Source of the DNA: Desulfobacterales bacterium
GTDB taxonomy: Bacteria > Desulfobacterota > Desulfobacteria > Desulfobacterales > SURF-7
Assembly: GCA_030145525.1 (NCBI GenBank)
Contig: JAQYVL010000047.1
Location: 1 to 32,847, forward strand
Reading direction: 5' to 3'
Length of the DNA stretch: 32,847 bases
Shown one piece after another: positions 1,519-24,471 of the stretch. Both the position numbers and the translations under genes were made by a program. The number at the start of each line of letters is the position of its first letter. Position 1 is the first letter of the stretch. The notes beneath the pieces were generated by a model. It saw only the letters and a program-made list of their open reading frames with translations, was not told where the DNA came from and searched no databases.

Positions 1519-1842
1519 ATAACTCCTTAAATTTATTTAAAATGTTTAAACCATATTAAGCCGGCATGTTTCTGCTTTATTACGGCATTGCCAATACTAT
1601 TATTCAATCAACTATTTTATTGACATTAAACCATCTTTTCCCCATATTTAAAAAACTTCACACAAATTTTTTCGTTTCGGTTTGTTGGGTCTCACCGGAA
1701 GTACACCAACAAAAAATGAATTACTCAGCTAATACCAATTGTAAGAATCACAATCAAGAATTCTTTTTTTTCGGCGGGGTTATCATGGCCTGTCGTTTGA
1801 TAATGAGTTAAGACGCGCTTATTTTTTCACAAAGGAGGTGTG

Positions 1843-2301
1843 ATGTCAAAAGTAATTCATACGTCTCATATCACCATTACCCCGGAAGAGGGGCCAACCC
1901 GAAAAGCAATGATCAAAGGTTTTTCCGAGCCTGTTTTTTACGGCGTTCATGGCGGAATAAAAAAATTTTACGGATTGGAACCGAAAAAGGAGCATGCTGC
2001 TACCCTTGATCACATTATTGGAGGAGTCGGCGGGTGAATGATGGGAACTCTGGCGGCGGTGCTTGCCGGTAAAAAAATTGTAACATCTCAAGATCGATAC
2101 CATGCGGAAGTTAAAGGTGACATCGAGAATGTTGATGGCGTGCTGAAAATTACCAGCATTCATGTTAACTATTTTTTAAAGGTGAATCGTGAGCAGGAAA
2201 AAGATGCGGAAGATGCCCTGAATACATATCTTCCTTTTTGTCCGGGGGCACAAAGTGTGATCGGCTGTATAAAAATCAATCACGAAATCACTTTTACCTG
2301 A
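1843..2301 (+). CDS. OsmC/Ohr-like protein with selenocysteine (UGA 2035-2037, residue 65 of 152)
   Basis: RBS AAGGAGGT 1832-1839, ATG 1843. The two track ORFs are in the same frame and separated only by one TGA: TLDHIIGGVGG-U-MMGTL matches the OsmC first-Cys helix, and CPGAQS is the second Cys motif. A SECIS-like hairpin follows. Confidence 0.85.
2050..2069 (+). promoter_or_regulatory. Candidate bacterial SECIS element
   Basis: CUGGC-GGC-[GGU]-GCU-U-GCCGG: 8-bp stem with a bulged U and a G-initiated GGU apical loop, with 20 nt between the UGA and the loop. Confidence 0.7.
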
Positions 2302-2346: not shown

Positions 2347-3273
2347 ATGATTATTGAAAAACGAAATCGAAAAAGCATCCTGACAGTCTATATAGGATTG
2401 GCTGCAAATTTCATTTTAGCTATCCTGAAAACGAGTATCGGTATTCTGGGGCATAGCCCTGCCTTACTCGCCGACGGCATCAATTCCACATCTGATGTCG
2501 CATACGGGATTGTTGTGAGTATATTTATTCGCCTTTCAGGAAAGCCGCCTGATGAAGATCACCCCTATGGTCATGACCAGATGGAAAGTGTCGCTGCCCT
2601 TGTTGTGGGCTCGTTTGTAATAACCACAGCCATTGCCATTTTCTGGAATTCAATTAACAGTGTGTATGATCTTTATATAGGGGAAGGTGATTTCAGCGGC
2701 GCCACGATTACCGCATTATGGGTCGCCTTGTTCACTGTGGCGGCAAAATTGTTGCTGACGATTTGGACACTGAAAGTAGGGCGGCAGACTCAAAACTCAG
2801 CCATACTTGCTCTGGCTTTTGATCATCGAAACGACATATTCTCAGCCATGGCTGCCTCTATCGGCATTTTTTTCGGCCGGTTCGGCTATCCCTGGGTTGA
2901 CCCTATGGCCGGAGCAATTGTTTCGATGATCATCCTGGGAACGGGCATTGAGATTTTACGCGAATCAACGGCAGATTTGATGGATACGCTGCCGGGCAAA
3001 ACCCTTGCACAACAAATTGCCGGCTTCTTGAATTCCATCCAAGGCGTAAAAGAAATAGAAGAGATCCATGCTCACCGATTCGGACCATATCTGGTTGCTA
3101 ATGTCACAATCGGCGTGGACGGTTTTCTAAGTGTAGCCGAAGGTGATAAAATTGCCACACTGGTAGAAGATATCCTGATCGAAAATATTGATCTTATGCG
3201 TAAGGTCCACGTTCATTACCATCCTGTAGCCACAACCGAAGAGATTCCAATCGTATTCCCCGGCAAAGTATGA
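2347..3273 (+). CDS. Cation diffusion facilitator (FieF/YiiP-like) transporter
   Basis: SPALLADGINSTSD, PPDEDHPYGH, DHRND and WVDP motifs, six hydrophobic segments, C-terminal VHVHYHP. Confidence 0.93.
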   Translation: MIIEKRNRKSILTVYIGLAANFILAILKTSIGILGHSPALLADGINSTSDVAYGIVVSIFIRLSGKPPDEDHPYGHDQMESVAALVVGSFVITTAIAIFWNSINSVYDLYIGEGDFSGATITALWVALFTVAAKLLLTIWTLKVGRQTQNSAILALAFDHRNDIFSAMAASIGIFFGRFGYPWVDPMAGAIVSMIILGTGIEILRESTADLMDTLPGKTLAQQIAGFLNSIQGVKEIEEIHAHRFGPYLVANVTIGVDGFLSVAEGDKIATLVEDILIENIDLMRKVHVHYHPVATTEEIPIVFPGKV

Positions 3274-5017: not shown

Positions 5018-5956
5018 ATGATCCGTGTGGAAAACCTGACAAAGTATTACAATGAATTTTGCGCGGTGGATCAGATCAACCTTCACATACGGAAGGGAGA
5101 AATTTTAGGGCTCTTAGGACCGAACGGAGCCGGAAAAACCACCGTTCTCAGGATGCTGACAGGTTTTTTTCTGCCAACTTCGGGTGACATCCATATCAAA
5201 GAGTATTCGATTCGAGAGGATTCCCTTGATATCAAAAGGCTGCTGGGATATCTGCCGGAATCAGCACCCCTGTACCACAGCATGCTGGTATACGACTACC
5301 TGGACTACGTGGCAAACATTAGGGGCATCAGGCCAGACAAAAAAATTTCAAGGCTTAGAAAACTGTCTGAACTGTGCGGCTTAAGCGGTATTATGCACAG
5401 GCCCATCAGCGAGCTCTCAAAGGGACTGAAACAGCGTGTAGGCATTGCCCATGCCATGATGAGTGATCCGGAGATACTGATTCTGGACGAGCCGACTTCA
5501 GGGCTTGATCCGAATCAAATCGTCGAAATCAGGGAAATTATACGCCGGATCGGAAAGGAAAAAACCATTATCCTTTCAACTCACATACTCAGTGAGGCAG
5601 AGGCTACCTGCGATAGAGTCGTAATCATCAATAAGGGAAAAATCGTGGCCGACGGAAGTACGGAATCACTTAAACTGACGGGTAATAGGGACAATGTGAT
5701 CAACATTTCCCTCCTTAATGCTGATGAAAATGAAGTCAAAAAAGAATTTGATTCCATTGATGGTATTAAAGAAATCAGTACGGTAAATACGGACGATCCG
5801 GAAATGCTGAGCCTCCGACTTACCTGCAGGAGCACTGATGACCTTCGGAGATCAATTTACCGGAGAATAAAGCTGAAAGACTGGATTCTGATGGAATTTC
5901 ATCAGGAAAGAAAGTCATTAGAAAACATATTCCGCGAACTGACCAAGGAGAATTGA
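5018..5956 (+). CDS. ABC transporter ATP-binding protein (GldA-like)
   Basis: Walker A GPNGAGKT, signature LSKGLKQR, Walker B ILDEPTSGLDP, STH switch. Confidence 0.95.
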   Translation: MIRVENLTKYYNEFCAVDQINLHIRKGEILGLLGPNGAGKTTVLRMLTGFFLPTSGDIHIKEYSIREDSLDIKRLLGYLPESAPLYHSMLVYDYLDYVANIRGIRPDKKISRLRKLSELCGLSGIMHRPISELSKGLKQRVGIAHAMMSDPEILILDEPTSGLDPNQIVEIREIIRRIGKEKTIILSTHILSEAEATCDRVVIINKGKIVADGSTESLKLTGNRDNVINISLLNADENEVKKEFDSIDGIKEISTVNTDDPEMLSLRLTCRSTDDLRRSIYRRIKLKDWILMEFHQERKSLENIFRELTKEN

Positions 5957-5957
5957 C

Positions 5958-6662
5958 ATGCGGCAGGTAACCCATATATTCAATAAAGAGTTTAAAGACT
6001 ATTTTATATCACCCATTGCCTATATCGTCATATCTGTCTTTCTTCTGGTAACAGGGTGGTTATTTTTTTCAACCTTTTTTCTGTACAACCAGGTTACCCT
6101 CAGAAACTTTTTTTCGCTCCTTCCTCTTATTTTTTCCTTTGTAATACCGGCTATTACCATGCGCCTTTTTTCCGAAGAGCTGAACATCGGATCATATGAA
6201 ATTCTTCTCACCATGCCGGTAACCTTCAAAGATGTAATTTTAGGAAAGCTGCTTGCGGGAGTAGCCATGGTGGCAGCCATGCTGCTGCCGACCGTTGCCT
6301 ACGCCATTACCGTCGCTTTCCTGGGAGAGCTCGACTGGGGTCCGGTGATCGGTGGTTACATCGGCGCCATCCTAATGGGATCAGCCTATACAGCTATTGG
6401 TCTTTTTGCTTCATCCCTTACGCGAAACCAGATTATCGCCTTTATTGTCGGGATGGCCATCTGTTTCAGCCTCACACTGATAGACAAGATGCTGTTTCTC
6501 TTTCCGGGATCTTTTCTTGGAGTGATCGGTTACCTTGGAGCGGATTTCCATTTTCAAAACATTTCAAAAGGCATTATCGACTCCAGGGATATCATCTACT
6601 TTCTAAGCGTTGTTTTTATAGGCCTCTACGGAGCACATCTGGCCATGCAGGAAAAGGAATAA
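5958..6662 (+). CDS. ABC-2 permease (GldF-like)
   Basis: KEFKDYFISPIAY, PAITMRLFSEE..GSYEILLT, SSLTRNQI and KGIIDSRD motifs; six TM segments; starts 1 nt after the ATPase stop. Confidence 0.92.
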   Translation: MRQVTHIFNKEFKDYFISPIAYIVISVFLLVTGWLFFSTFFLYNQVTLRNFFSLLPLIFSFVIPAITMRLFSEELNIGSYEILLTMPVTFKDVILGKLLAGVAMVAAMLLPTVAYAITVAFLGELDWGPVIGGYIGAILMGSAYTAIGLFASSLTRNQIIAFIVGMAICFSLTLIDKMLFLFPGSFLGVIGYLGADFHFQNISKGIIDSRDIIYFLSVVFIGLYGAHLAMQEKE

Positions 6663-6672
6663 GGAGAATAAC

Positions 6673-8904
6673 ATGGGTAAAATAAGCAGATCCGGAAAAT
6701 ATATCAAATTTTTCATTTATCTAATCGTTATCGTTCTGATCAACATTGCCGGTATGACACTGTTTACCAGGGTTGACCTTACAAACAGTAAAATTTATTC
6801 GATATCCGACGCCAGCAAGGAAGTTGTTGCAACCCTTTCAGAGCCTTTGACCATCAATATTTTCTTTACCAAAAATCTTCCTGCCCCCTATAACAATACC
6901 GAGCAGTATCTTCATGACCTGCTGGAAGAATATGCTATCCATGCGGGTAAATATCACAATTATTTTAATTATCGATTTTATAATATCAGCCCCGAAGGAG
7001 AAGGAGTCGGGGAGAACGTTGAAGAAAATAGAACCCTTGCAAGAAATTATGGAATCAACCCTGTCCAGATCCGCCACTTTGAAAAGGATGAGATTAAATT
7101 CAAGAATGCTTTCATGGGCCTTGTGATCATCCATGGTGACATCATTGAAAAAATTCCGACCATTACTTCTACGGAAGGCCTTGAATACAAGCTGACAACA
7201 TCAATTCAGAAACTGAATAACAAAATCAGTGCGCTTCTCGCTTTAAAGCAAAAAATTCAGATTACACTATACCTGTCTTCATCCATGAAACAGGTAGCGC
7301 CTTTTATGGGCCTGAAAAGCCTCCCCCAATTACCCGAAAAAGTTGAAAAGGCTGTTGAAAAACTGAATTCAAAAAATTACGGCAAGATCGAATTTACATA
7401 TCTCGATCCTTCAGAAGACCCGAAAATTGAAGCGGAAGCAGCGGAACAGAGCCTGATGGCATTGAAATGGCCTGCCATTCCTCAAAAGAATATCGATCCG
7501 GGATCAGGTATTATCGGCCTGACAATGAGGTATGAGAAAAAAATTGTCGATGTCCCTCTTCTCAGTATCATACAGTTTCCGCTTATCGGTACACGATATG
7601 AGCTGATCGACATGGAATCTTTGGAGGAGATTTTAAATGAAAACATTGAAACCCTTATCGATATAAATGAAAATATCGGATTTCTTTCAGATCACGGCGC
7701 GCTGAGCCTTTTCGGAAGCCCGCCGGCAAACCCCATGATGGGGCCACAGGAGGAGGGACTCTCCAATTTCAATTCTCTTGTTTCGCGAAACTATTCATTT
7801 AAAAACATCAGTCTTACAGACGAAAAAATACCGGAAAGCTTGAAATGCATGATCATCGCCGGACCCACGGAGCCGTTTACCGATTATGAGCTGTACCAGA
7901 TTGACCAATATCTGATGCGGGGAAAAAGCCTTGCCGTTATTATGGATAGATTTAAAGAGGTGATGCCGCAGAGACGTCAGACGTTTTCCTTCAACCAGGG
8001 ACCTGCATATGTGCCGATAGATACAGGACTCGAAAAACTGCTGAATCATTATGGGGTTCGAGCAAAAAAATCCTATGTCATGGATGAAAACTGTTACAAA
8101 CAGACCAATGCTCCGCAATTCGGCGGTGGTGAAACGCCGATCTATTTTGCCCCGATTATTCAGCAGGAAAATATCAACCCAGAACCGACCTTTATGAAAA
8201 ACATAAAAGGCCTGATTACGTTGAAAATTTCACCGCTTGAACTTCTGGAAGACCGGATCAAGGCAGGCAATATTAAAGCCACAAACCTGTTTTCCTCATC
8301 AGACAAATCATGGGAAATGAAGGGAAGGATCAGCCTCAATCCAAGATTTATCAGGCCCCCTAAATCCGATGATGAAAAAGAGAGTATGCCCCTTTCCTTT
8401 CTGCTGGAAGGAGAGTTTCAGAGTTATTTTGACGGAAAACCGATCCCTGTGAAAAAAACCGAATCAGACGATGCGGACGAAGACGAAAAGGATATCGAGA
8501 CTATAGGTCCCAAAACCCCTGAAGAAGAAAAGCCGGAGATCGACCTGTCAAAAGTCGAGGGGCAGGGAGGATTTATTGCAAAGAGCAAACCAGCCAAAAT
8601 CTTTATGCTTGCCTCTTCAGATATGCTAAAAAATAATATTCTGGACAGCGAAGGCAAAGGCCCAAATACTACCTTCATCCTGAATGTGATCGACTACCTG
8701 AATAACAGGGAGGACACTGCCCTTATGCGCAGCAAGGAGCAAACGTTGAATCCTTTGTTTGAAACAGATGCTTTGACAAAAACCGCGGTCAAGTATTTCA
8801 ATATTGCCGGACTGCCGGTCCTTGTATCTTTTTTCGGATTTTTTGTGTGGCTCAAGCGACGCTCAAGAAAAAAACAGATCCGGATGATATTTCAGAAAAG
8901 TTAG
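6673..8904 (+). CDS. GldG-family ABC auxiliary protein
   Basis: N-terminal TM followed by RVDLT..KIYSIS, LEYKLTTSI, IIAGP..F...ELYQIDQYLMRG, N..FILNVIDYL; C-terminal TM followed by KRR. Confidence 0.9.
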   Translation: MGKISRSGKYIKFFIYLIVIVLINIAGMTLFTRVDLTNSKIYSISDASKEVVATLSEPLTINIFFTKNLPAPYNNTEQYLHDLLEEYAIHAGKYHNYFNYRFYNISPEGEGVGENVEENRTLARNYGINPVQIRHFEKDEIKFKNAFMGLVIIHGDIIEKIPTITSTEGLEYKLTTSIQKLNNKISALLALKQKIQITLYLSSSMKQVAPFMGLKSLPQLPEKVEKAVEKLNSKNYGKIEFTYLDPSEDPKIEAEAAEQSLMALKWPAIPQKNIDPGSGIIGLTMRYEKKIVDVPLLSIIQFPLIGTRYELIDMESLEEILNENIETLIDINENIGFLSDHGALSLFGSPPANPMMGPQEEGLSNFNSLVSRNYSFKNISLTDEKIPESLKCMIIAGPTEPFTDYELYQIDQYLMRGKSLAVIMDRFKEVMPQRRQTFSFNQGPAYVPIDTGLEKLLNHYGVRAKKSYVMDENCYKQTNAPQFGGGETPIYFAPIIQQENINPEPTFMKNIKGLITLKISPLELLEDRIKAGNIKATNLFSSSDKSWEMKGRISLNPRFIRPPKSDDEKESMPLSFLLEGEFQSYFDGKPIPVKKTESDDADEDEKDIETIGPKTPEEEKPEIDLSKVEGQGGFIAKSKPAKIFMLASSDMLKNNILDSEGKGPNTTFILNVIDYLNNREDTALMRSKEQTLNPLFETDALTKTAVKYFNIAGLPVLVSFFGFFVWLKRRSRKKQIRMIFQKS

Positions 8905-8916
8905 GAAAGGCGAACA

Positions 8917-9891
8917 ATGAAAATGAAAAAGGAATATATCATACTTGCGGCAATCATTGTTGGTTTGTCAGTATATCTTACGATTCACAAATCAGATAAA
9001 GTCCATTATACGCTTCCGGAAATGGCGGAGATCTCCAAAAAGGATATCACCAAAATCGAAATTTCCAAAAAAAATGAACCGATTACACTCATAAGGCAGG
9101 ATGATAAGTGGGTGATCGGTCCTGATGCATATCCGGCGGATTCCGGAAAGGTAGAAAAAATTCTTGATATCATAGATGATCTTTCCCTGACCGCACTTGT
9201 TTCAGAATCGGAAAACTATATTCGCTATGATCTGGGGGAAGATCAGCGAATTCATGTTCGCGCATTCAAAGGTGATGCCCTGAAACGAGAATTCGATATT
9301 GGTAAGGCCGCCCCCTCATTCAGGCACACCTTCATAAGAGTTGAAAAAGATCCCAAAGTTTACCACGCCCGAAAAAACTTTCGATCCCAGTTCGAACAGA
9401 CCGTTGATAATCTGAGGGACAAAACCGTTCTCTCCTTTGACGGAAATGAAATTCAGGAAATAGCCATTGCCAAGGGAGACCGCTCACTTGCTCTTTCAAA
9501 AAAACAGATACCTGTTGAAGTAAAGCCGGACAAGGATTCCGTGAAGCCGGGCAAGGATTCCAAAAAAGAAGAAAAGAGCCGGCCGCCGGAAACCAAAACA
9601 ATCTGGCAGGATGGTGACGGAAAAACCGTTGAAGACACAAAAATAAACAGCCTGCTGTCATCCCTTTCAGGCCTCAAATGTAAAAGTTATCTTCCCGGCA
9701 AAAAAGAGGATCTCAAAGAACCAGTTTATACAGTTCACCTTCGGGGTATAGATGAGCTGTCTCTTTCGATATTTAAAAAAGCCACTGATGAAAGCCGGGA
9801 ATATCCGACAATTTCCTCATGGAACAGTTACGCCTTTGTGCTCGAAGACTCAAAAGCTGATAATATTATGTCGGTTTTCGAAAAAAAATGA
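8917..9891 (+). CDS. DUF4340-like exported or membrane-anchored protein
   Basis: N-terminal anchor, W.I....YPAD...V, IGK.AP and LRDK motifs; usual position after GldG. Confidence 0.8.
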   Translation: MKMKKEYIILAAIIVGLSVYLTIHKSDKVHYTLPEMAEISKKDITKIEISKKNEPITLIRQDDKWVIGPDAYPADSGKVEKILDIIDDLSLTALVSESENYIRYDLGEDQRIHVRAFKGDALKREFDIGKAAPSFRHTFIRVEKDPKVYHARKNFRSQFEQTVDNLRDKTVLSFDGNEIQEIAIAKGDRSLALSKKQIPVEVKPDKDSVKPGKDSKKEEKSRPPETKTIWQDGDGKTVEDTKINSLLSSLSGLKCKSYLPGKKEDLKEPVYTVHLRGIDELSLSIFKKATDESREYPTISSWNSYAFVLEDSKADNIMSVFEKK

Positions 9892-11147
9892 AACTGATTC
9901 ATACGTCAGACTGGCATTTGGGCCAAAATTTCATGTTCAAAGACAGAAAAAAAGAGCATGAAAAATTTCTTGAATGGCTGGTGCTGCTGATAAAAAAAGA
10001 ATCTGCGGATGTTCTGCTTGTTGCGGGAGATATCTTTGACACAATTTCTCCGCCAAACTACGCATTAAAGATGTATTACAGCTTTTTAGCCCGTGTCTCC
10101 TCAACAACTTCATGCCATACCGTCATTGTAGGCGGAAATCATGATTCTGTGTCAACCCTGAATGCTCCAAAAAATATTCTTGAAGCGCTGAATGTTCATG
10201 TAACAGGAGGCATTTCCGTTGATATTAACGATGAAATCATCGTTATTAGAAATTCTTTGGGAGAGCCCTCAGGAATAATCTGTGCCGTGCCGTTTTTAAG
10301 AGATCGGGATATTCGGAAATCTGTTCCGGGCGAAAGCTACCAGGGAAAAAGCCGGGCTCTTTTGGAAGGGATCAAGAAACATTATTCGCTGGTGAAAGAT
10401 GCAGCCATAAAAAAGAAAGCCGACCTGACCGAAAAAAAGATTCCTGTGGTTGCAACAGGCCATCTCTTCGCGGAGGGAGGTGACGTAAAGGATGAAGAAG
10501 GTCTTCGTGAAATCCATGTGGGCTCCCTGGGGAAGGTCACTGCCGACACATTTCCAAAAGAATTTGATTACCTTGCCTTGGGCCATCTTCACCGGCCGCA
10601 AAAGGTTGGAAAATACCGAAACATAAGATACTCGGGCGCCCCCATACCCTTGAGTTTCAGCGAAGCCGATAATACAAAACAGGTTGTTTGCATAACCTTT
10701 GACCAAGGAAAAAAAGAGCCCGAAATAAAAACCATTGAGATACCTGAGTTTCAGAAACTGCGGACCGCAAAAGGCAGTCTTGACCAGGTCATTACACAGC
10801 TCAAAACTCTCCGTAAAAAAAATGTCGATGACCCAATCTGGGTTGAAGTTTCTGTTTTGGAGAAGAACTGGAAGCCCGATATTGAAAAAGCCGTAAACGA
10901 TCTGGCGAATGAGCAGAAGCTTGATATTCTGGCTATCAAAAACCTCAAAACCTCCCGGGACAGAAGATTACAAAAAACAGCTCCATCTGAAACGCTTGAC
11001 AATTTTACACCGGAGTCGGTCTTTCAAAAAAGACTGGAAAAAGAGATAGAGATCGAAGAAGATCTAAAAATTGGTCTGATGCATGCATTTCATGAAATCC
11101 TAAATGCTGTAAACGAAAGTGTTGAGGATTTTCATGAGAGTTCTTAA
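9888..11147 (+). CDS. sbcD: Exonuclease SbcCD subunit D
   Basis: HTSDWHLG, AGDIFD, GNHDS, ATGHLF, ALGHLH and YSGAPIPLSFSE motifs; ATGA overlap with the upstream gene. Confidence 0.96.
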   Translation: MKLIHTSDWHLGQNFMFKDRKKEHEKFLEWLVLLIKKESADVLLVAGDIFDTISPPNYALKMYYSFLARVSSTTSCHTVIVGGNHDSVSTLNAPKNILEALNVHVTGGISVDINDEIIVIRNSLGEPSGIICAVPFLRDRDIRKSVPGESYQGKSRALLEGIKKHYSLVKDAAIKKKADLTEKKIPVVATGHLFAEGGDVKDEEGLREIHVGSLGKVTADTFPKEFDYLALGHLHRPQKVGKYRNIRYSGAPIPLSFSEADNTKQVVCITFDQGKKEPEIKTIEIPEFQKLRTAKGSLDQVITQLKTLRKKNVDDPIWVEVSVLEKNWKPDIEKAVNDLANEQKLDILAIKNLKTSRDRRLQKTAPSETLDNFTPESVFQKRLEKEIEIEEDLKIGLMHAFHEILNAVNESVEDFHESS

Positions 11148-14100
11148 GCTGAATCTTTTGAACATTAATTCTCTAAAGGGTGAATTTAATATAAATTTTG
11201 AGGAGTCACCGCTGGGTGACTCCGGCCTCTTTGTCATCACCGGCCCCACCGGAGCGGGAAAGACAAGCATCCTTGATGCGATATGTGTTGCGCTTTACGG
11301 AAAAACCCCTCGACTTCCCAATAAAAAAGAGCTCGAACAGCTTATGACTCATCATACGGGTGAGTGCAAAGCGGAAGTTACGTTTTCTATAAGCGGAAAA
11401 AAATATCGCTCCTGGTATGCGAGATACAGGGCAAGAAATAAACCCGATGGAAAATTTCAGTCGCCAAAAATGGAGCTTGTGGAGGAAGATACCGGAAAAA
11501 TCATTGCAGATAAAATTTCACAGGTTCCGGTAAAGGTGGAAGAGCTTACCGGTTTGGATTATGAGCGCTTTTCAAGATCAATTATGCTTGCCCAGGGAAA
11601 TTTTACTGCATTTTTACAGGCTGCTGAAGATGACCGGGCGGTTCTTCTTGAAAAAATGACCGGAACGGAAATTTATACGTATATTTCAAAAACCGCTTTC
11701 AACAAAGACAAAATCGAAAAACAAAAGCTCATAAAACTGGATGCCATCCTCGAAAGTTTCAGCCTTTTGCCCGCAGAGGCTGTTCAAGAAAAAAAAGAAA
11801 AACTATTCGAAATCAGGTCCCAAATTACAGAAACCGAAAAAAACCTCGCACAGCTCTTTGAAGAAAAAAAAATTCTGGAAGACGTTCGCAGACTGGAAAC
11901 CGCCGTCACTGAATCCCGGGAAAAGCTGCTCCGGATATCCGAAGAGGAAGAAAGAGCAAAGCCTGATTTTGAAAGGCTTGAACAACATCAGAAGGCTTTG
12001 CCTGTCAGGGAATCCCATATAATTCTTCAGGGGTTTCGCTCACAAATTGAAAGGATAAACAGCAGAATCACCGATTCAGAGAAGACGATTCCCTGCCTTG
12101 AGACGGAACTCGATAATTCAGAACAAAAGAGAAAAGAAAAATCAGATAAATTTGAAATCTTCAAAGCTGAAAAAGAAAAGCTTCAGACCTCAATTACCGA
12201 AACCGTCAGGCAGGACAGTCTGATCAAAAAAGAAGAAGATATTATAACCGAGCAGAAAAAAGAACTGCTCGAAATTGAAGGAAAAGCAGAGCACGTTAAA
12301 GGTCAAAAAAAGGACAAGAAGTCAGAAATAATCAAAACGGAAAAAGAGATCAGGAACTGCAGGAAATATCTTTCAGATCATGAGCCTGACAAATCTCTTG
12401 TAAAGGATTTACCGCTCCTTCAGGAGATCACCTCTGTCTTGAAAAACCTTTCCAAAAAGAAAATTGAAAAACAAAGCCGAATCGAAAACAGCAAAAAAAA
12501 GCGCATAACCGCCTTGAAAGACAACAAAAAAGAATGGGCTCTGCTTAAAAAAATAGAAGCCCGGCTTAAGAAAAAGAGCCGTGAAAAAGAAGAAATTGCC
12601 GGAAAACTGACCGCTTTGCTATCCGGAAAGGACCTGCCGTTTTTGGAGAACAAAGAGGAGCAACTCAAAAAAAATCAGCAGAATATAAAAAACCTTATGG
12701 AAAAGGGCGCTCAGATTGAAGATATGAAAAAAAAGCAAGATGCCCTTATCTCCGAAATAAAAAAAGCTGAGAAAAATCTTTCTAAAACAAATGGTCTTAT
12801 CAGAAGTCTTGAACGAGAAAAAAAGAATAAAGAAAAAGAGATTCTGCATCTTGAAAAAGCAAAAGAACTTGAAGATGCAATTAAAAGTCTGGAAGAAAGG
12901 AGAAAAGAGCTTGTAAAGGATGGTCCCTGCCCTCTTTGCGGATCGACAGAGCACCCCTGGGCAGATCATGCGCCGGCGTCTTCCAACACGGCAGACCGGC
13001 TCCATCTATTACGAAAAGAATTAAAAAGCATCAGAAAACAGATCCAAAAAGCTGAAAAAGATGCGACAAAGCTAATTACCCAGAATGAACAAAACGAAAA
13101 AATTTTAGCCGAACAAAAGGTGTGCCTGGAAAAATTTGATACCGAGTTTAAAGGCCTGCTCGAATTCACAGATCTTGACATCTCTCCTGATCAAATGGAA
13201 AGCCTGAGCAAAAAGCTTAAAACAATCACCAAAGAGATTGCCAAAACAACCGCCGATCTTCAAAATATCAAAAAGACAAAAGATCTTCTTGCAAAGCTTA
13301 ATGAGAACATCCTTATTGAAACCCGAAGCCTTTCGGATGCTGTCGTAAAATGTGAAAAGGCGGAAAACCAGCAAAAATCCATTGAAGAAGAAGCCGCTCG
13401 CATGGAAAAAGAGCTTGAAGAAGAGGACCGCAATTATCAAAAATCGCTGTTGGGTCTGAATACGATTCTAAACCCTTATAAGGAGCAGATTACGGATGCG
13501 GATGCCGGCGGCAAACTGGTTAACCGCCTATCCATCCGATCCGACTCCTTTCAGGAGCAAGTAAAAAACCTTGAAAAACTCAACGAGAAACTCAACCCCC
13601 TTAAAGAAGAACTGGCTGTTATCAAAACCGTCTTCGAGACATATGAAAAACAGATAGAAGATGAAAAAAAGAAGATCAAAGGTTTTCAAAATACCCTCAG
13701 CGGTATGATCGAAAAACGAAAAATACTTTTTGGCGATCAGAATCCTGTAAAAATTCAGGAACACCTCAAGAAAAAAACCATCTCTTTCGAAAACGATCTG
13801 AAAAACCTTCACTCCGAAATAACGGAAATAAAAAAGCAGCTTGCCGCAAAACAGGAGACGTTGAAACAGAATCAATCCGAGCTGAAAAAAATCGCACAGG
13901 AAACAGCCCTGGCATCCGAAACATTTATCACCCGACTTGCGAAAACCGGTTTCCCCGACGAAGAAAATTTTCTCAAAGCCTTCCTTCAGGAAAAAGAGGT
14001 GGAGAAGCTTCAAAACCTGAAGAAAGACATAGAAAAAAGAAAAACTGAAAATCATTCGCTGCAAAAAGACAGCCGGGACAAACTGAACGAAATTCTAAAA

Positions 14101-14787
14101 AATCCAATCACCCGAAATAGTATGGGATCGATACTTGAAAAGATAAACACATCGGAAAAACAAAAATCTGAGTTAAACAGTGAGAAAGGAGCGGTCCGAT
14201 CCCTTTTGGAAGAGAATGAAAAACGAGTGGAGGGCCATCGACAAAAATTGGATGAAGCAAACCGTCAAAAAAAAGAGTGTCTGAGATGGAATACTTTGAA
14301 CGAACTGATCGGATCGGCAGATGGTGCTAAATTCAGAAAATTTGCCCAGGGGCTTACCCTTGAAACCCTGATCGAAAAAGCCAATATTTATCTTGATATG
14401 CTGAACCGGCGTTATCTGCTGAAACGAAGCGAATCTTCCGATCTGGCAATTGAGGTGATTGACACGTTTTATGGCGACCAGGTTCGCCCTACAGACAACC
14501 TGTCAGGCGGTGAAAGCTTTCTTGTCAGCCTCGCCCTTGCTCTTGGGCTTTCTGATTTAAGCAGCCAAAGAACCGCTGTAGAATCCCTGTTTCTCGATGA
14601 GGGATTCGGCACACTTGATTCCGAAACGCTTGAAACTGCTCTCTCCGCTCTGGACACCCTGAACGCCACCGGCAAAACCATCGGTGTCATTTCTCATGTG
14701 GAAGCACTGAAAGAGAGAATCTCCTCAAAAATTGAGGTCAGGCCTTTATCCGGCGGTATCAGCACCCTAGAAGTGACAGCCTTCTGA
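11134..14787 (+). CDS. sbcC: Exonuclease SbcCD subunit C (SMC-like ATPase)
   Basis: NINSLKGE, Walker A GPTGAGKT, LAQGNF Q-loop, long coiled coil, CPLCG zinc hook, LSGGE, LFLDEGFG, ISH. ATG 11134 (MRVLKL) preferred over the track start 11119. Confidence 0.96.
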   Translation: MRVLKLNLLNINSLKGEFNINFEESPLGDSGLFVITGPTGAGKTSILDAICVALYGKTPRLPNKKELEQLMTHHTGECKAEVTFSISGKKYRSWYARYRARNKPDGKFQSPKMELVEEDTGKIIADKISQVPVKVEELTGLDYERFSRSIMLAQGNFTAFLQAAEDDRAVLLEKMTGTEIYTYISKTAFNKDKIEKQKLIKLDAILESFSLLPAEAVQEKKEKLFEIRSQITETEKNLAQLFEEKKILEDVRRLETAVTESREKLLRISEEEERAKPDFERLEQHQKALPVRESHIILQGFRSQIERINSRITDSEKTIPCLETELDNSEQKRKEKSDKFEIFKAEKEKLQTSITETVRQDSLIKKEEDIITEQKKELLEIEGKAEHVKGQKKDKKSEIIKTEKEIRNCRKYLSDHEPDKSLVKDLPLLQEITSVLKNLSKKKIEKQSRIENSKKKRITALKDNKKEWALLKKIEARLKKKSREKEEIAGKLTALLSGKDLPFLENKEEQLKKNQQNIKNLMEKGAQIEDMKKKQDALISEIKKAEKNLSKTNGLIRSLEREKKNKEKEILHLEKAKELEDAIKSLEERRKELVKDGPCPLCGSTEHPWADHAPASSNTADRLHLLRKELKSIRKQIQKAEKDATKLITQNEQNEKILAEQKVCLEKFDTEFKGLLEFTDLDISPDQMESLSKKLKTITKEIAKTTADLQNIKKTKDLLAKLNENILIETRSLSDAVVKCEKAENQQKSIEEEAARMEKELEEEDRNYQKSLLGLNTILNPYKEQITDADAGGKLVNRLSIRSDSFQEQVKNLEKLNEKLNPLKEELAVIKTVFETYEKQIEDEKKKIKGFQNTLSGMIEKRKILFGDQNPVKIQEHLKKKTISFENDLKNLHSEITEIKKQLAAKQETLKQNQSELKKIAQETALASETFITRLAKTGFPDEENFLKAFLQEKEVEKLQNLKKDIEKRKTENHSLQKDSRDKLNEILKNPITRNSMGSILEKINTSEKQKSELNSEKGAVRSLLEENEKRVEGHRQKLDEANRQKKECLRWNTLNELIGSADGAKFRKFAQGLTLETLIEKANIYLDMLNRRYLLKRSESSDLAIEVIDTFYGDQVRPTDNLSGGESFLVSLALALGLSDLSSQRTAVESLFLDEGFGTLDSETLETALSALDTLNATGKTIGVISHVEALKERISSKIEVRPLSGGISTLEVTAF

Positions 14788-23961: not shown

Positions 23962-24293
23962 TTATGCATTGACCCGATTATGCACTTCGGCTTGTGGGAA
24001 ATACACTTTTACTTCTTTTTCAATTTTTTTTCCTACCTTACTTCGAGCTGTTTTCATATTGTACCGCACCTGTAGATTCAGCCAAAATTCAGGTTCTATC
24101 CCAAAATATTTACCAAGGCGTAGCGCAGTGTCAGCGGTGATTTCTCTTTTGCCATGAATAACTTGACTAACACGATTTGCCGGTACATTAATGTCTTTTG
24201 ATAGCTGACTCTGGGTAATGTTCATTGGTCTAAGAAATTCTTCTAATAGTACATCACCCGGTGTAGTGTAATTGGAGATAATTTTTTTGTCAT
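23962..24293 (-). pseudogene. higA: HigA-family antitoxin, frameshifted
   Basis: Removing one copy of the tandem GTGTA (24261-24270) restores MTKKLSPITPGDVLLEEFLRPMNITQ...ITADTALRLGKYFG...FWLNLQ. Confidence 0.9.
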
Positions 24294-24297
24294 GATT

Positions 24298-24471
24298 TCA
24301 CCCCTTATGATAATCAACAATCTCTACTTCTGTGACGTTTTCTTCCTTCCATACGAAACAAATACGCCATTGATTATTAATTCTGATGTTATGTTGACCT
24401 TTTCTGTTGCCTTTCAATTGTTCAAGTCGATTTCCTGGAGGAGCCCGCAAACTGTTTATTTCAAATATTTT
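24298..24471 (-). pseudogene. higB: HigB (RelE/ParE family) toxin, N-terminally truncated
   Basis: Hand translation: ...EINSLRAPPGNRLEQLKGNRKGQHNIRINNQWRICFVWKEENVTEVEIVDYHKG*; in-frame TAA at 24472-24474 upstream, N-terminal half absent. Confidence 0.9.

Follow-up and report, generated by a model that had tools for sequence, protein, structure and literature searches.

An OsmC/Ohr-superfamily selenoprotein gene with an in-frame UGA at the first catalytic cysteine column in a Desulfobacterales bacterium

The window, that is, the whole stretch of 32,847 nucleotides analysed here from a Desulfobacterales bacterium, contains on its forward strand two open reading frames (ORFs; 1840/1843-2037 and 2038-2301) that share one frame and meet at a TGA (2035-2037). 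Read-through translation gives a single coding sequence (1843-2301, with the true stop TGA at 2299-2301) for a protein of 152 residues, ...TLDHIIGGVGG-U-MMGTL...FCPGAQS..., so that both the abutting same-frame ORFs and the 152-residue product of the preliminary description were borne out by the ORF listing and translation. A putative Shine-Dalgarno motif, GGAGG at 1834-1838 on the same strand, can be read in the sequence 4 nt ahead of the start ATG. The in-frame TGA, interpreted here as selenocysteine (Sec), is codon 65; its residue aligns with the Cys of solved OsmC chains and falls in the column that holds the first conserved Cys in OsmC/Ohr. The second, resolving-type conserved Cys is Cys133 (TGT, 2239-2241, forward strand), which lies in a CPGAQS motif. 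Downstream on the forward strand is a CDF metal-efflux gene (2347-3273; Pfam Cation_efflux, 141 bits; ZT_dimer, 46.7 bits), which serves as context only. No second convincing candidate emerged when the window was scanned for further ORF pairs joined by a TGA, and no tRNAs were found in it.

Domain searches and structure prediction were consistent in treating the two halves as one protein. The read-through product matched Pfam OsmC (PF02566) with 36.5 bits (cut-off 27.5) over residues 56-147, across the TGA; taken alone, the C-terminal half scored 27.4 bits, under the cut-off, and the N-terminal half matched nothing. AlphaFold2 returned one compact OsmC/Ohr domain (pLDDT 97.3, pTM 0.89) with a predicted helix (residues 54-76) passing through residue 65. 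Foldseek gave 63 PDB matches at E <= 0.001, with about 150 columns aligned, and the best listed matches were OsmC, Ohr, or OsmC-like chains (including 2onf, E 4e-9, TM 0.79, as well as 1lql). U65 and C133 aligned with both Cys of Thermus thermophilus OsmC (1ukk) and Escherichia coli OsmC (1nye), the column of Cys133 being near-invariant and corresponding to the Cys of CPVS in these proteins. By sequence the relationship is weak, with E 1.5e-6 for the best solved relative using a family profile and 0.1 using the single sequence. None of the curated NCBIfam subfamily models for OsmC, Ohr, and SACOL1771 fitted (best, TIGR03563, 15 bits versus a cut-off of 166), and pipelines that rely on such models thus have no means to recognise the protein. 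The N-terminal half had initially been considered atypical for OsmC; it does mark a distinct subfamily by sequence, since the Pfam match is confined to residues 56-147 and none of the NCBIfam models fits, whereas the whole chain is predicted to take the ordinary OsmC/Ohr fold. A six-frame PF02566 search of the bacterium's own genome gave no match, missing even the gene at 1843-2301, and has little bearing on paralogs.

Relatives of the gene revealed strong conservation of the UGA codon. At the residue-65 column, 35 of 36 other genome loci had TGA and the 36th (L038) had TGC, encoding Cys, giving 36 TGA, with the window's own, and one TGC among the 37 loci that reach the column. TGA was also found in 80 of 80 metagenome loci (79 located by motif and L098 by eye) and in 80 of 80 species-genome loci, the three locus sets overlapping. 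Cys occurs in one form only among all DNA loci examined, the TGC locus, and in four close database proteins. Neither TAA nor TAG occupied the column in the DNA of any relative examined (genome, metagenome, or species-genome loci), which agrees with the earlier prediction that homologs would carry TGA or Cys there. Within a phylum sample of 401 genomes, 49 had a match, and 51 of the 53 match rows contained exactly one TGA; the remaining two were a Cys form without TGA and a fragment short of the column. TGA was retained at identities as low as 34% (locus L027). Further out, distant full-length database relatives that span the column have Cys in 40 of 51 cases and R, G, A, D, L, or S in 10 of 51, so that peroxidatic chemistry cannot be available to all members of the wider clade.

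The distance between the two halves was equally regular. The start ATG lay exactly 64 codons ahead of the TGA in 33 of 36 genome loci (the window's own included), in all 79 metagenome loci located by motif, and in 79 of 80 species-genome loci; variable spacing, which the preliminary description had named as a point against a single gene, was not what these loci displayed. That description had also raised the possibility that the TGA was a sequencing error, and here the codon was kept both in an independent assembly and in the two same-genus genomes, each with the identical TGA. The independent sequence, a contig from another study's run that is about 91% identical and covers 1927-2067, had no difference at 2035-2037, and of the 11 differences listed between it and the window, 10 fell at third codon positions of the read-through frame. 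One relative (G039) retains the gene only as a pair of fragments on separate contigs; a TAA is found close to the N-terminus, and the Sec region is missing.

Immediately 3' of the UGA, RNAfold reproduced the hairpin noted earlier at 2050-2069 (forward strand), with its bulged U and a GGU apical loop 20 nt past the UGA. It consists of an 8-bp stem (2050-2057 with 2061-2062 and 2064-2069), a bulged U2063, and the apical loop GGU (2058-2060), and begins 12 nt from the UGA; RNAalifold on 34 relatives gave the same helix. Considered by itself, the hairpin of the window is no more stable than expected by chance (z = -0.35; equal or better folding in 74 of 200 shuffles). Across the 34 relatives, pairing was maintained in 97.5% of cells, which none of 500 shuffles matched, the loci being kin to each other so that the shuffle statistics overstate their independence. 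Both sides were altered in three of seven pairs (11 cells); for instance, pair 16-35 was CG in 24 relatives and UA in 7. A wider set of 90 distinct sequences gave the same picture, with CG in 70 and UA in 13 at this pair, an overall pairing of 97.6%, and a G at the loop start (column 24 or 25) in 88. The bases brought together by pairs 18-33 and 21-30 are third positions of Leu and Ala codons, and in pair 16-35 the first base of a Leu codon (CUG/UUG, synonymous) meets the codon next after Ala; protein coding does not account for the covariation. Most relatives lack the bulge and form an uninterrupted 7-bp stem closed by a loop of 4 to 6 nt. L026 and L027, which are distant Sec forms, carry another hairpin, rich in G+C and located a few nucleotides farther on, and the sole Cys form among the loci has no such hairpin. 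Rfam gave no match to the hairpin at E <= 10 within 1700-2500, and its gathering score was reached nowhere in the whole window. Comparative sequence data support a conserved, covarying SECIS stem-loop with a G in its apical loop.

Most of the machinery for Sec insertion was identified in the genome. Scores above the cut-off were obtained for selA (631 bits), selD (341 bits, with its own in-frame TGA), and tRNA-Sec (71.8 bits). The proposed check for selA, selB, selC, and selD thus came out positive for selA, selD, and tRNA-Sec and partial for selB, of which no more than the C-terminal 35 residues were recovered, at the edge of a contig (C5, bases 4-108; SelB-wing_3, 55.5 bits). SelB-wing_2 was not found in this genome, the assembly of which is fragmented (308 contigs, 91% complete); both same-genus genomes encode complete selB (370 and 368 bits). 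TGA conservation, the covarying hairpin, and the Sec machinery uphold the original proposal of a Sec-for-Cys OsmC-family redox protein cut in two by gene callers, and 1843-2301 is confirmed as one OsmC/Ohr-superfamily selenoprotein gene in which a TGA stands in frame at the column of the first catalytic Cys.

The gene neighbourhood was examined across relatives by tblastn with the window's CDF protein, its cytidylate-kinase-like protein, and its CCA-enzyme as queries. The OsmC gene is separated from the CDF gene by 45 nt with no terminator-like site, and this adjacency recurs in both same-genus genomes (loci L021 and L022). Among the 38 other loci searched, CDF was absent near the gene in the other 36 (34 of them with the full gene). 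The operon with the CDF transporter that had been proposed therefore stands within the genus (2/2 genomes) and falls as a feature of the family (0/36 other loci). A CDF operon as a family trait was rejected on these tblastn results, CDF being found at L021 and L022 only. No neighbour was universal: the commonest cluster reached at most 4 of 39 loci in 1.5-kb flanks and at most 16 of 80 loci in 3-kb flanks. Of the 80 loci, 15 have rubrerythrin as the next gene downstream (median gap, 15 nt), 14 have an Rrf2 regulator as the next gene upstream (gap, 16 nt), and 12 have a flavodoxin nearby; in some relatives the gene sits between the Rrf2 regulator and rubrerythrin. The loci with rubrerythrin or Rrf2 are a minority and are probably related to one another, and neither neighbour is found in the window. 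Four of 39 loci have beside the gene an ORF that appeared MarR-like by eye. Two metatranscriptome runs were also searched; one had no contig on the stretch, and the other contained a 41-nt piece from a relative over 2035-2075 and a related contig in which the same flanks are joined and the OsmC gene is left out.

In public databases, the family is largely present in pieces. Of the 120 best hits of a word search, 104 were C-terminal halves starting right past column 65, and the 150 best representatives included 41 N-terminal and 23 C-terminal halves. Source names, given for some hits, were 'OsmC family protein', 'organic hydroperoxide reductase OsmC/OhrA', and 'hypothetical protein'. Nine of the 13 full-length database relatives from the word search have W at column 65. 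Exact matching of the W-form proteins to fetched DNA succeeded for 0 of 13, and for every W protein the closest relatives with verified DNA have TGA; judging from these relatives, the W is most likely the product of gene callers changing the genetic code on short contigs.

These database entries bear on three other accounts of the TGA. The locus might consist of two small genes, one of 64 residues closed by TGA 2037 and one for an 87-residue OsmC fragment initiated at ATG 2038, as the table 11 reading splits it and as most database relatives are kept. Two ATG codons do follow the TGA, and a GGAGG at 2020-2024, 13 nt upstream, had been pointed out as a possible ribosome-binding site for the second gene; the motif is present, yet a Shine-Dalgarno-like motif occurs within the 17 nt before the TGA in just 20 of 159 relatives, which argues against that role. 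Further, neither half is a domain alone, the predicted helix spans the junction, the halves invariably lie side by side in one frame at a constant distance, and the Cys forms (L038 and the four database proteins) are continuous and retain the same Met-Met, so that we regard two genes as very improbable. A pseudogene or an assembly error, with TGC or TGT mutated or misread as TGA, would be in keeping with a fragmented assembly and with the broken copy in G039, and is scarcely credible given the TGA at column 65 in more than 100 distinct genome and metagenome loci and in an independent run, and given purifying selection on both halves, evident in the third-position differences and in conservation down to 34% identity. 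It is likewise extremely improbable that TGA is generally reassigned (to Trp or Gly, as in codes 4 and 25) and residue 65 is not Sec. The W-form proteins speak for such a reassignment, but TGG was at column 65 in no DNA locus examined, the genome has dedicated Sec machinery, and TGA closes 8 of the 20 long ORFs in the window and also the gene at 1843-2301 itself. TGA also serves as an ordinary stop in the family, whose own stops in the 80 species-genome loci are TAA in 46, TGA in 21, and TAG in 13.

A different question is what a genuine selenoprotein of this type would act on. A selenol/thiol oxidoreductase whose substrates would be protein or low-molecular disulfides, persulfides, or metal(loid) species, as has been suggested for OsmC branches that are poorly understood, YhfA among them, is a rather unlikely reading for which there are nonetheless several points. 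The clade fits no curated OsmC/Ohr model and lies at roughly the same distance from OsmC, Ohr, YhfA, and structural-genomics OsmC-like chains; in the genus, the gene is placed immediately ahead of a metal exporter; and the published OsmC-like selenoprotein family is itself listed just as a 'predicted redox protein' (PMC1088965). Against it, both OsmC redox residues are retained in their usual contexts, the conserved neighbourhood, where present, consists of rubrerythrin, flavodoxin, and Rrf2, a peroxide and oxidative-stress setting, and the CDF link is genus-specific, with the related RNA-library contig joining the flanks without the OsmC gene. By analogy with OsmC and Ohr, a thiol/selenol-dependent hydroperoxide reductase cycle is most likely.

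Taken as a whole, the explanation that we consider highly probable is that of a 152-residue OsmC/Ohr selenoprotein with a SECIS-decoded UGA, most likely a hydroperoxide reductase. We infer selenium insertion, the peroxide substrate, the reductant, and the roles of both residues as follows. During translation of the mRNA, the hairpin at 2050-2069, inside the coding sequence, would bring in SelB bound to Sec-tRNA(Sec), by which the UGA at 2035-2037 would be read as selenocysteine. Sec65, in the long first helix, would take the place of the first (peroxidatic-type) Cys of OsmC/Ohr, and Cys133 (CPGAQS) that of the second (resolving-type) Cys. The selenolate would attack the peroxide, Cys133 would resolve the resulting selenenic acid to a selenenylsulfide, and a cellular dithiol reductant would regenerate the enzyme.

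Such an enzyme would give the oxidative-stress defences of strict anaerobes a further, selenium-dependent component, and the TGA clade and the TGC clade together offer a natural Sec/Cys pair for asking what Sec gives an OsmC-type active site. Known Sec decoding and OsmC chemistry are unchanged by the finding. In practical terms, a family model together with a SECIS consensus would allow hundreds of genes to be called correctly in anaerobic sediment bacteria.

Compared with OsmC peroxiredoxins (E. coli 1nye/1qwi; T. thermophilus 1ukk), the protein shares the full-length fold, the size of about 140-150 residues, and both Cys columns (AGC... and CPV.R.L). It differs in that Sec replaces the first Cys, in the N-terminal 55 residues with their own motif, EPV.YGVHGGI..FY, and in reaching the cut-off of none of the curated NCBIfam models of OsmC type. 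Ohr proteins (6eb4, 9jxc, 1zb9, 1n2f) also share the fold (TM 0.70-0.76) and have two redox residues at equivalent places, whereas sequence similarity is marginal (OhrB 2bjo, E 8e-4 with the profile) and the HMM alignments stop short of the N-terminus. In the ohr-ohrR gene pair a regulator is found beside ohr, and in some relatives of the present gene there is likewise an adjoining regulator (Rrf2 or, by eye, MarR-like, in the loci counted above). Bacterial SECIS elements of the E. coli fdhF type are coding-region hairpins about 11-12 nt past the UGA with a GGU or GU apical loop and a bulged U. The hairpin described here is alike in its coding-region position 12 nt past the UGA, its GGU loop, and its bulged U, and unlike in that the bulged U of the window is on the 3' side, most relatives have no bulge, and Rfam has no match.

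OsmC-like selenoproteins had been described as a known class at the outset, rightly so, as an 'OsmC-like protein' selenoprotein family has been in print since the Sargasso Sea study of Zhang, Fomenko and Gladyshev in 2005 (PMC1088965). The family is listed again in the Olavius symbiont study, with three 'OsmC-like' sequences and deltaproteobacterial occurrence (PMC1976440), and in two reviews (PMC9312934, PMC13188914). As described there, it belongs to COG1765 (YhfA) and has the redox motif UxxT. The present protein resembles it in the PF02566 domain, Sec in place of the redox Cys, a SECIS just past the UGA with a loop G, and the existence of Cys homologs. In place of UxxT, as given in the published tables, the window has U-M-M-G-T, with Thr at +4, and the distant Sec members have U-L-T-G-T; the published sequences may nevertheless include the present clade. 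The family profile gives a stronger score to OsmC proper (1ukk, 1.5e-6) than to YhfA (1ml8, 0.0056). We tentatively raise the possibility, which we consider less likely than not, that there is a second OsmC clade apart from the UxxT/YhfA type, defined by EPV.YGVHGGI..FY ... GG-U-MMGTL ... CP.AQS. Such a clade might be almost wholly Sec-dependent, with its own coding-embedded SECIS, widespread in sulfate-reducing and syntrophic Thermodesulfobacteriota and also in Nitrospirota and NC10, and missed by annotation, and it might form a selenoperoxidase module with rubrerythrin and flavodoxin under an Rrf2 sensor. OsmC-like selenoproteins are thus already known, and what is new is another member, whose subfamily departs from the UxxT motif as tabulated for the published family.

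Two open reading frames on the forward strand, at 1840/1843-2037 (65/64 aa) and 2038-2301 (87 aa), share one frame under translation table 11, and the TGA at 2035-2037 is their sole separator. Translation through this TGA yields 152 residues, ...TLDHIIGGVGG-U-MMGTLAAVLAGK...FCPGAQSVIGC..., and both the abutting frames and the read-through protein are as reported in the preliminary description. The Pfam OsmC model (cut-off, 27.5 bits) matched the read-through protein at 36.5 bits over residues 56-147, with the TGA inside the match. By itself, the C-terminal half scored 27.4 bits, slightly below the cut-off, and a Pfam search with the N-terminal half alone returned zero matches. The core of the earlier reading, a Sec-bearing OsmC gene split in two by gene callers, holds, and we regard a real, SECIS-dependent selenoprotein as very probable.

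Six-frame searches with stops read through, run on 61 genomes of close relatives with the window's own among them, recovered the gene from nine; eight of these matches had one TGA each, and the ninth, in genome G039, comprised two fragments only. An even sample of the phylum gave a match in 49 of 401 genomes, with exactly one TGA in 51 of 53 match rows, none in one, and a fragment short of the column in the last. Homologs had been expected to show TGA or Cys, never TAA or TAG, and the 37 fetched loci covering the column carried TGA (36, own counted) or TGC (one, L038), with no TAA or TAG among them. TGA was also found in 80 of 80 metagenome loci (79 by motif and one, L098, by eye) and in 80 of 80 species-genome loci, the latter being 80 of 467 relative-encoding stretches on one-genome-per-species contigs; the phylum, metagenome, and species-genome sets overlap and consist of loci related to one another. 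The codon was retained even at 46% and 34% identity, in the distant Sec forms L026 and L027. In G039, the gene survives only as N-terminal and C-terminal fragments on two contigs (L028, 774-947, and L029, 1504-1683), both mid-contig with unrelated flanks and with the Sec region missing; these pieces reflect either decay of the gene or chimerism in the assembly.

Could the halves be separate genes, with GGAGG at 2020-2024 serving as the ribosome-binding site of a gene starting at ATG 2038? Only 20 of 159 relatives have an SD-like motif ahead of the TGA; the GGAGG is thus a by-product of Gly-Gly codons. The start ATG stands exactly 64 codons 5' of the TGA in 33 of 36 genome loci (own counted), 79 of 79 metagenome loci, and 79 of 80 species-genome loci. 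The prospect that the TGA is a sequencing error is opposed by the same TGA in both same-genus genomes (89% protein identity) and by a 221-nt contig from another study's run, which covers 1927-2067 with 13 differences from the window; among the differences listed, none falls at 2035-2037 and 10 of 11 are on third codon positions of the frame. TGA is a normal stop in these organisms, since the family's true stop codons are mixed (TAA 46, TGA 21, and TAG 13 in the species-genome loci) and TGA terminates 8 of 20 long open reading frames in the window. Database entries reflect the split: the best 120 matches of a word-index search included 104 proteins of ~86 to 98 aa starting directly after column 65, two N-terminal halves, and 13 proteins covering the column (9 W, 4 C). 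Among the best 150 cluster representatives, 41 were N-terminal halves stopping at the column, 23 were C-terminal halves, and 51 covered it (40 C, 1 W, 10 other). The nearest DNA-verified relative of every W protein has TGA, so we infer that W is TGA called under an alternative code; for three of the four C proteins, the nearest relative is the TGC locus.

RNAfold recovered the proposed hairpin at 2050-2069 (+) in full, with a GGU loop at 2058-2060 that begins 20 nt past the UGA and a bulged U2063. Judged alone, this hairpin does not exceed chance expectation: z was -0.35, and 74 of 200 shuffles folded equally well. Its reality must therefore rest on comparison with relatives. Across 34 ungapped relatives, excluding L026 and L027 (shifted hairpin) and L038 (Cys form), RNAalifold found a single helix, in which columns 16-22 pair with 29-35 (numbered from the U of UGA). 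In this helix 97.5% of cells were paired, with both-side changes in three of seven pairs (11 cells), and 0 of 500 shuffles matched the observed pairing or covariation, a statistic inflated by kinship. Shifting the partner by 1 to 3 columns lowered pairing to 7-50%. Pairing was 97.6% in a wider set of 90 distinct sequences out of 112 Sec loci, of which 70 had C-G and 13 had U-A at pair 16-35, and 88 had a G at loop column 24 or 25; in the 67 distinct species-genome sequences, 456 of 469 cells were paired. Third positions of Leu and Ala codons meet in pairs 18-33 and 21-30 (the latter carrying a double change, C-G to G·U, in the window), and at pair 16-35 a synonymous CUG/UUG choice is tied to the residue after Ala (Gly or Lys). 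Such covariation does not reflect constraint on the protein. The single Cys form no longer has the helix, and the distant Sec forms have another, G+C-rich hairpin a few bases further 3'. Though inflated by kinship, these sequence statistics are clear in direction.

The genome's own Sec machinery was recovered in part from an assembly that is 91% complete in 308 contigs. A search for selA, selB, selC, and selD had been suggested; selA (631 bits), tRNA-Sec (71.8 bits), and selD (contig C306, 22769-23698, -; 341 bits) were found, but selB is represented only by its last 35 residues (contig C5, bases 4-108; SelB-wing_3, 55.5 bits versus a cut-off of 23.2), with no other piece above cut-off in this genome. 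Since both same-genus genomes have a complete selB (370 and 368 bits versus a cut-off of 242), the gap is likely due to assembly. The selD gene has one in-frame TGA, making selenophosphate synthetase here itself a selenoprotein.

The suggested operon with the CDF transporter gene (2347-3273, +) is compatible with a 45-nt gap that has no terminator-like site, but the adjacency recurs only in two same-genus genomes. A promoter-like match lies at 1797-1825; such matches are not commoner here than in shuffles. In a 717-nt contig from another study's metatranscriptome run (90-95% identical), window 1700-1770 is joined to 2341-2700, with 133 unrelated letters where the window has 570 nt containing the OsmC gene; in a close relative, the gene thus seems to be missing from this locus. 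Around the 80 species-genome loci (3-kb flanks), rubrerythrin was immediately 3' in 15 (median gap, 15 nt), an Rrf2 regulator immediately 5' in 14 (gap, 16 nt), and flavodoxin a recurrent neighbor in 12, each Pfam-confirmed on one example. The row Rrf2 regulator, Sec-OsmC, rubrerythrin, flavodoxin occurs in a subset, with gaps of 15-16 nt on each side of the OsmC gene (L178, 3494-3988; L168, 1878-2315; L155, 4142-4582). These neighbors make up a peroxide-stress setting, which is confined to a minority of the loci and probably to a few clades. Going by record titles, most carriers are Thermodesulfobacteriota MAGs (Desulfobacterales, Desulfobacteraceae, Syntrophobacterales, and others), and a few belong to Nitrospirota (Ca. 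Sulfobium) and NC10/Methylomirabilota.

Elsewhere in the window, tandem paralogous cytidylate-kinase-like genes lie at 685-1518 (-; PF13189, 154.8 bits) and 1-585 (-; running off the window, paralogy judged by eye), and a distant copy adjoins the OsmC fragment in L029. A same-strand gene run at 5018-14787 (+) opens with an ABC ATPase and an ABC-2 permease and later includes large frames of 743, 324, 419, and 1222 aa. By eye, we take 24298-24450 (-), probably longer upstream, to be a candidate HigB/RelE-type toxin gene, followed by what is presumably an HTH antitoxin gene at 23962-24225 (-).

An AlphaFold2 model built from a 45-row alignment of relatives predicted one compact domain (mean pLDDT, 97.3; pTM, 0.89) with residue 65 mid-way along a long helix, 54-76. 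Foldseek aligned ~150 columns to solved OsmC, Ohr, and OsmC-like chains (top, 2onf, E 4e-9, TM 0.79; then 1lql, 9jxc, 6eb4, 1nye, 1vla, 1ml8, and 1ukk). The N-terminal half, earlier called atypical, is therefore ordinary by predicted fold but distinctive by sequence: none of the curated NCBIfam OsmC, Ohr, and SACOL1771 models came near its cut-off on the read-through protein. SelB and Sec-tRNA(Sec) would decode the UGA at 2035-2037, steered by the hairpin; Sec65 would then make the nucleophilic attack in an OsmC/Ohr-type peroxide reductase, with Cys133 as its resolving partner and hydroperoxides as the likely substrate. What results is a solid correction to the annotation, together with a SECIS that is well supported at the family level.

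In alignments with solved OsmC chains, the first Cys pairs with U65 and the Cys of CPV with C133. The clade profile is roughly equidistant from all solved OsmC/Ohr branches (1ukk OsmC, 1.5e-6; 2onf, 4e-5; 2opl, 2e-4; E. coli OsmC, 3e-4; OhrB, 8e-4; YhfA, 6e-3), and the protein is not clearly a member of the YhfA branch (COG1765). Lists of prokaryotic selenoproteins have included an 'OsmC-like protein' family ever since the Sargasso Sea study, which gave three sequences, COG1765, a UXXT motif, and a SECIS figure (PMC1088965); the Olavius symbiont study (PMC1976440) counts it too, and two reviews tabulate it (PMC9312934, PMC13188914). The window protein lacks the UxxT motif given in those tables, and the table passages and legends on OsmC-like selenoproteins did not contain the clade's motif. 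The clade may be a separate, second branch of OsmC proteins with Sec, or it may belong to the published family as a portion not yet described; under either reading an OsmC-like selenoprotein is a kind already known.
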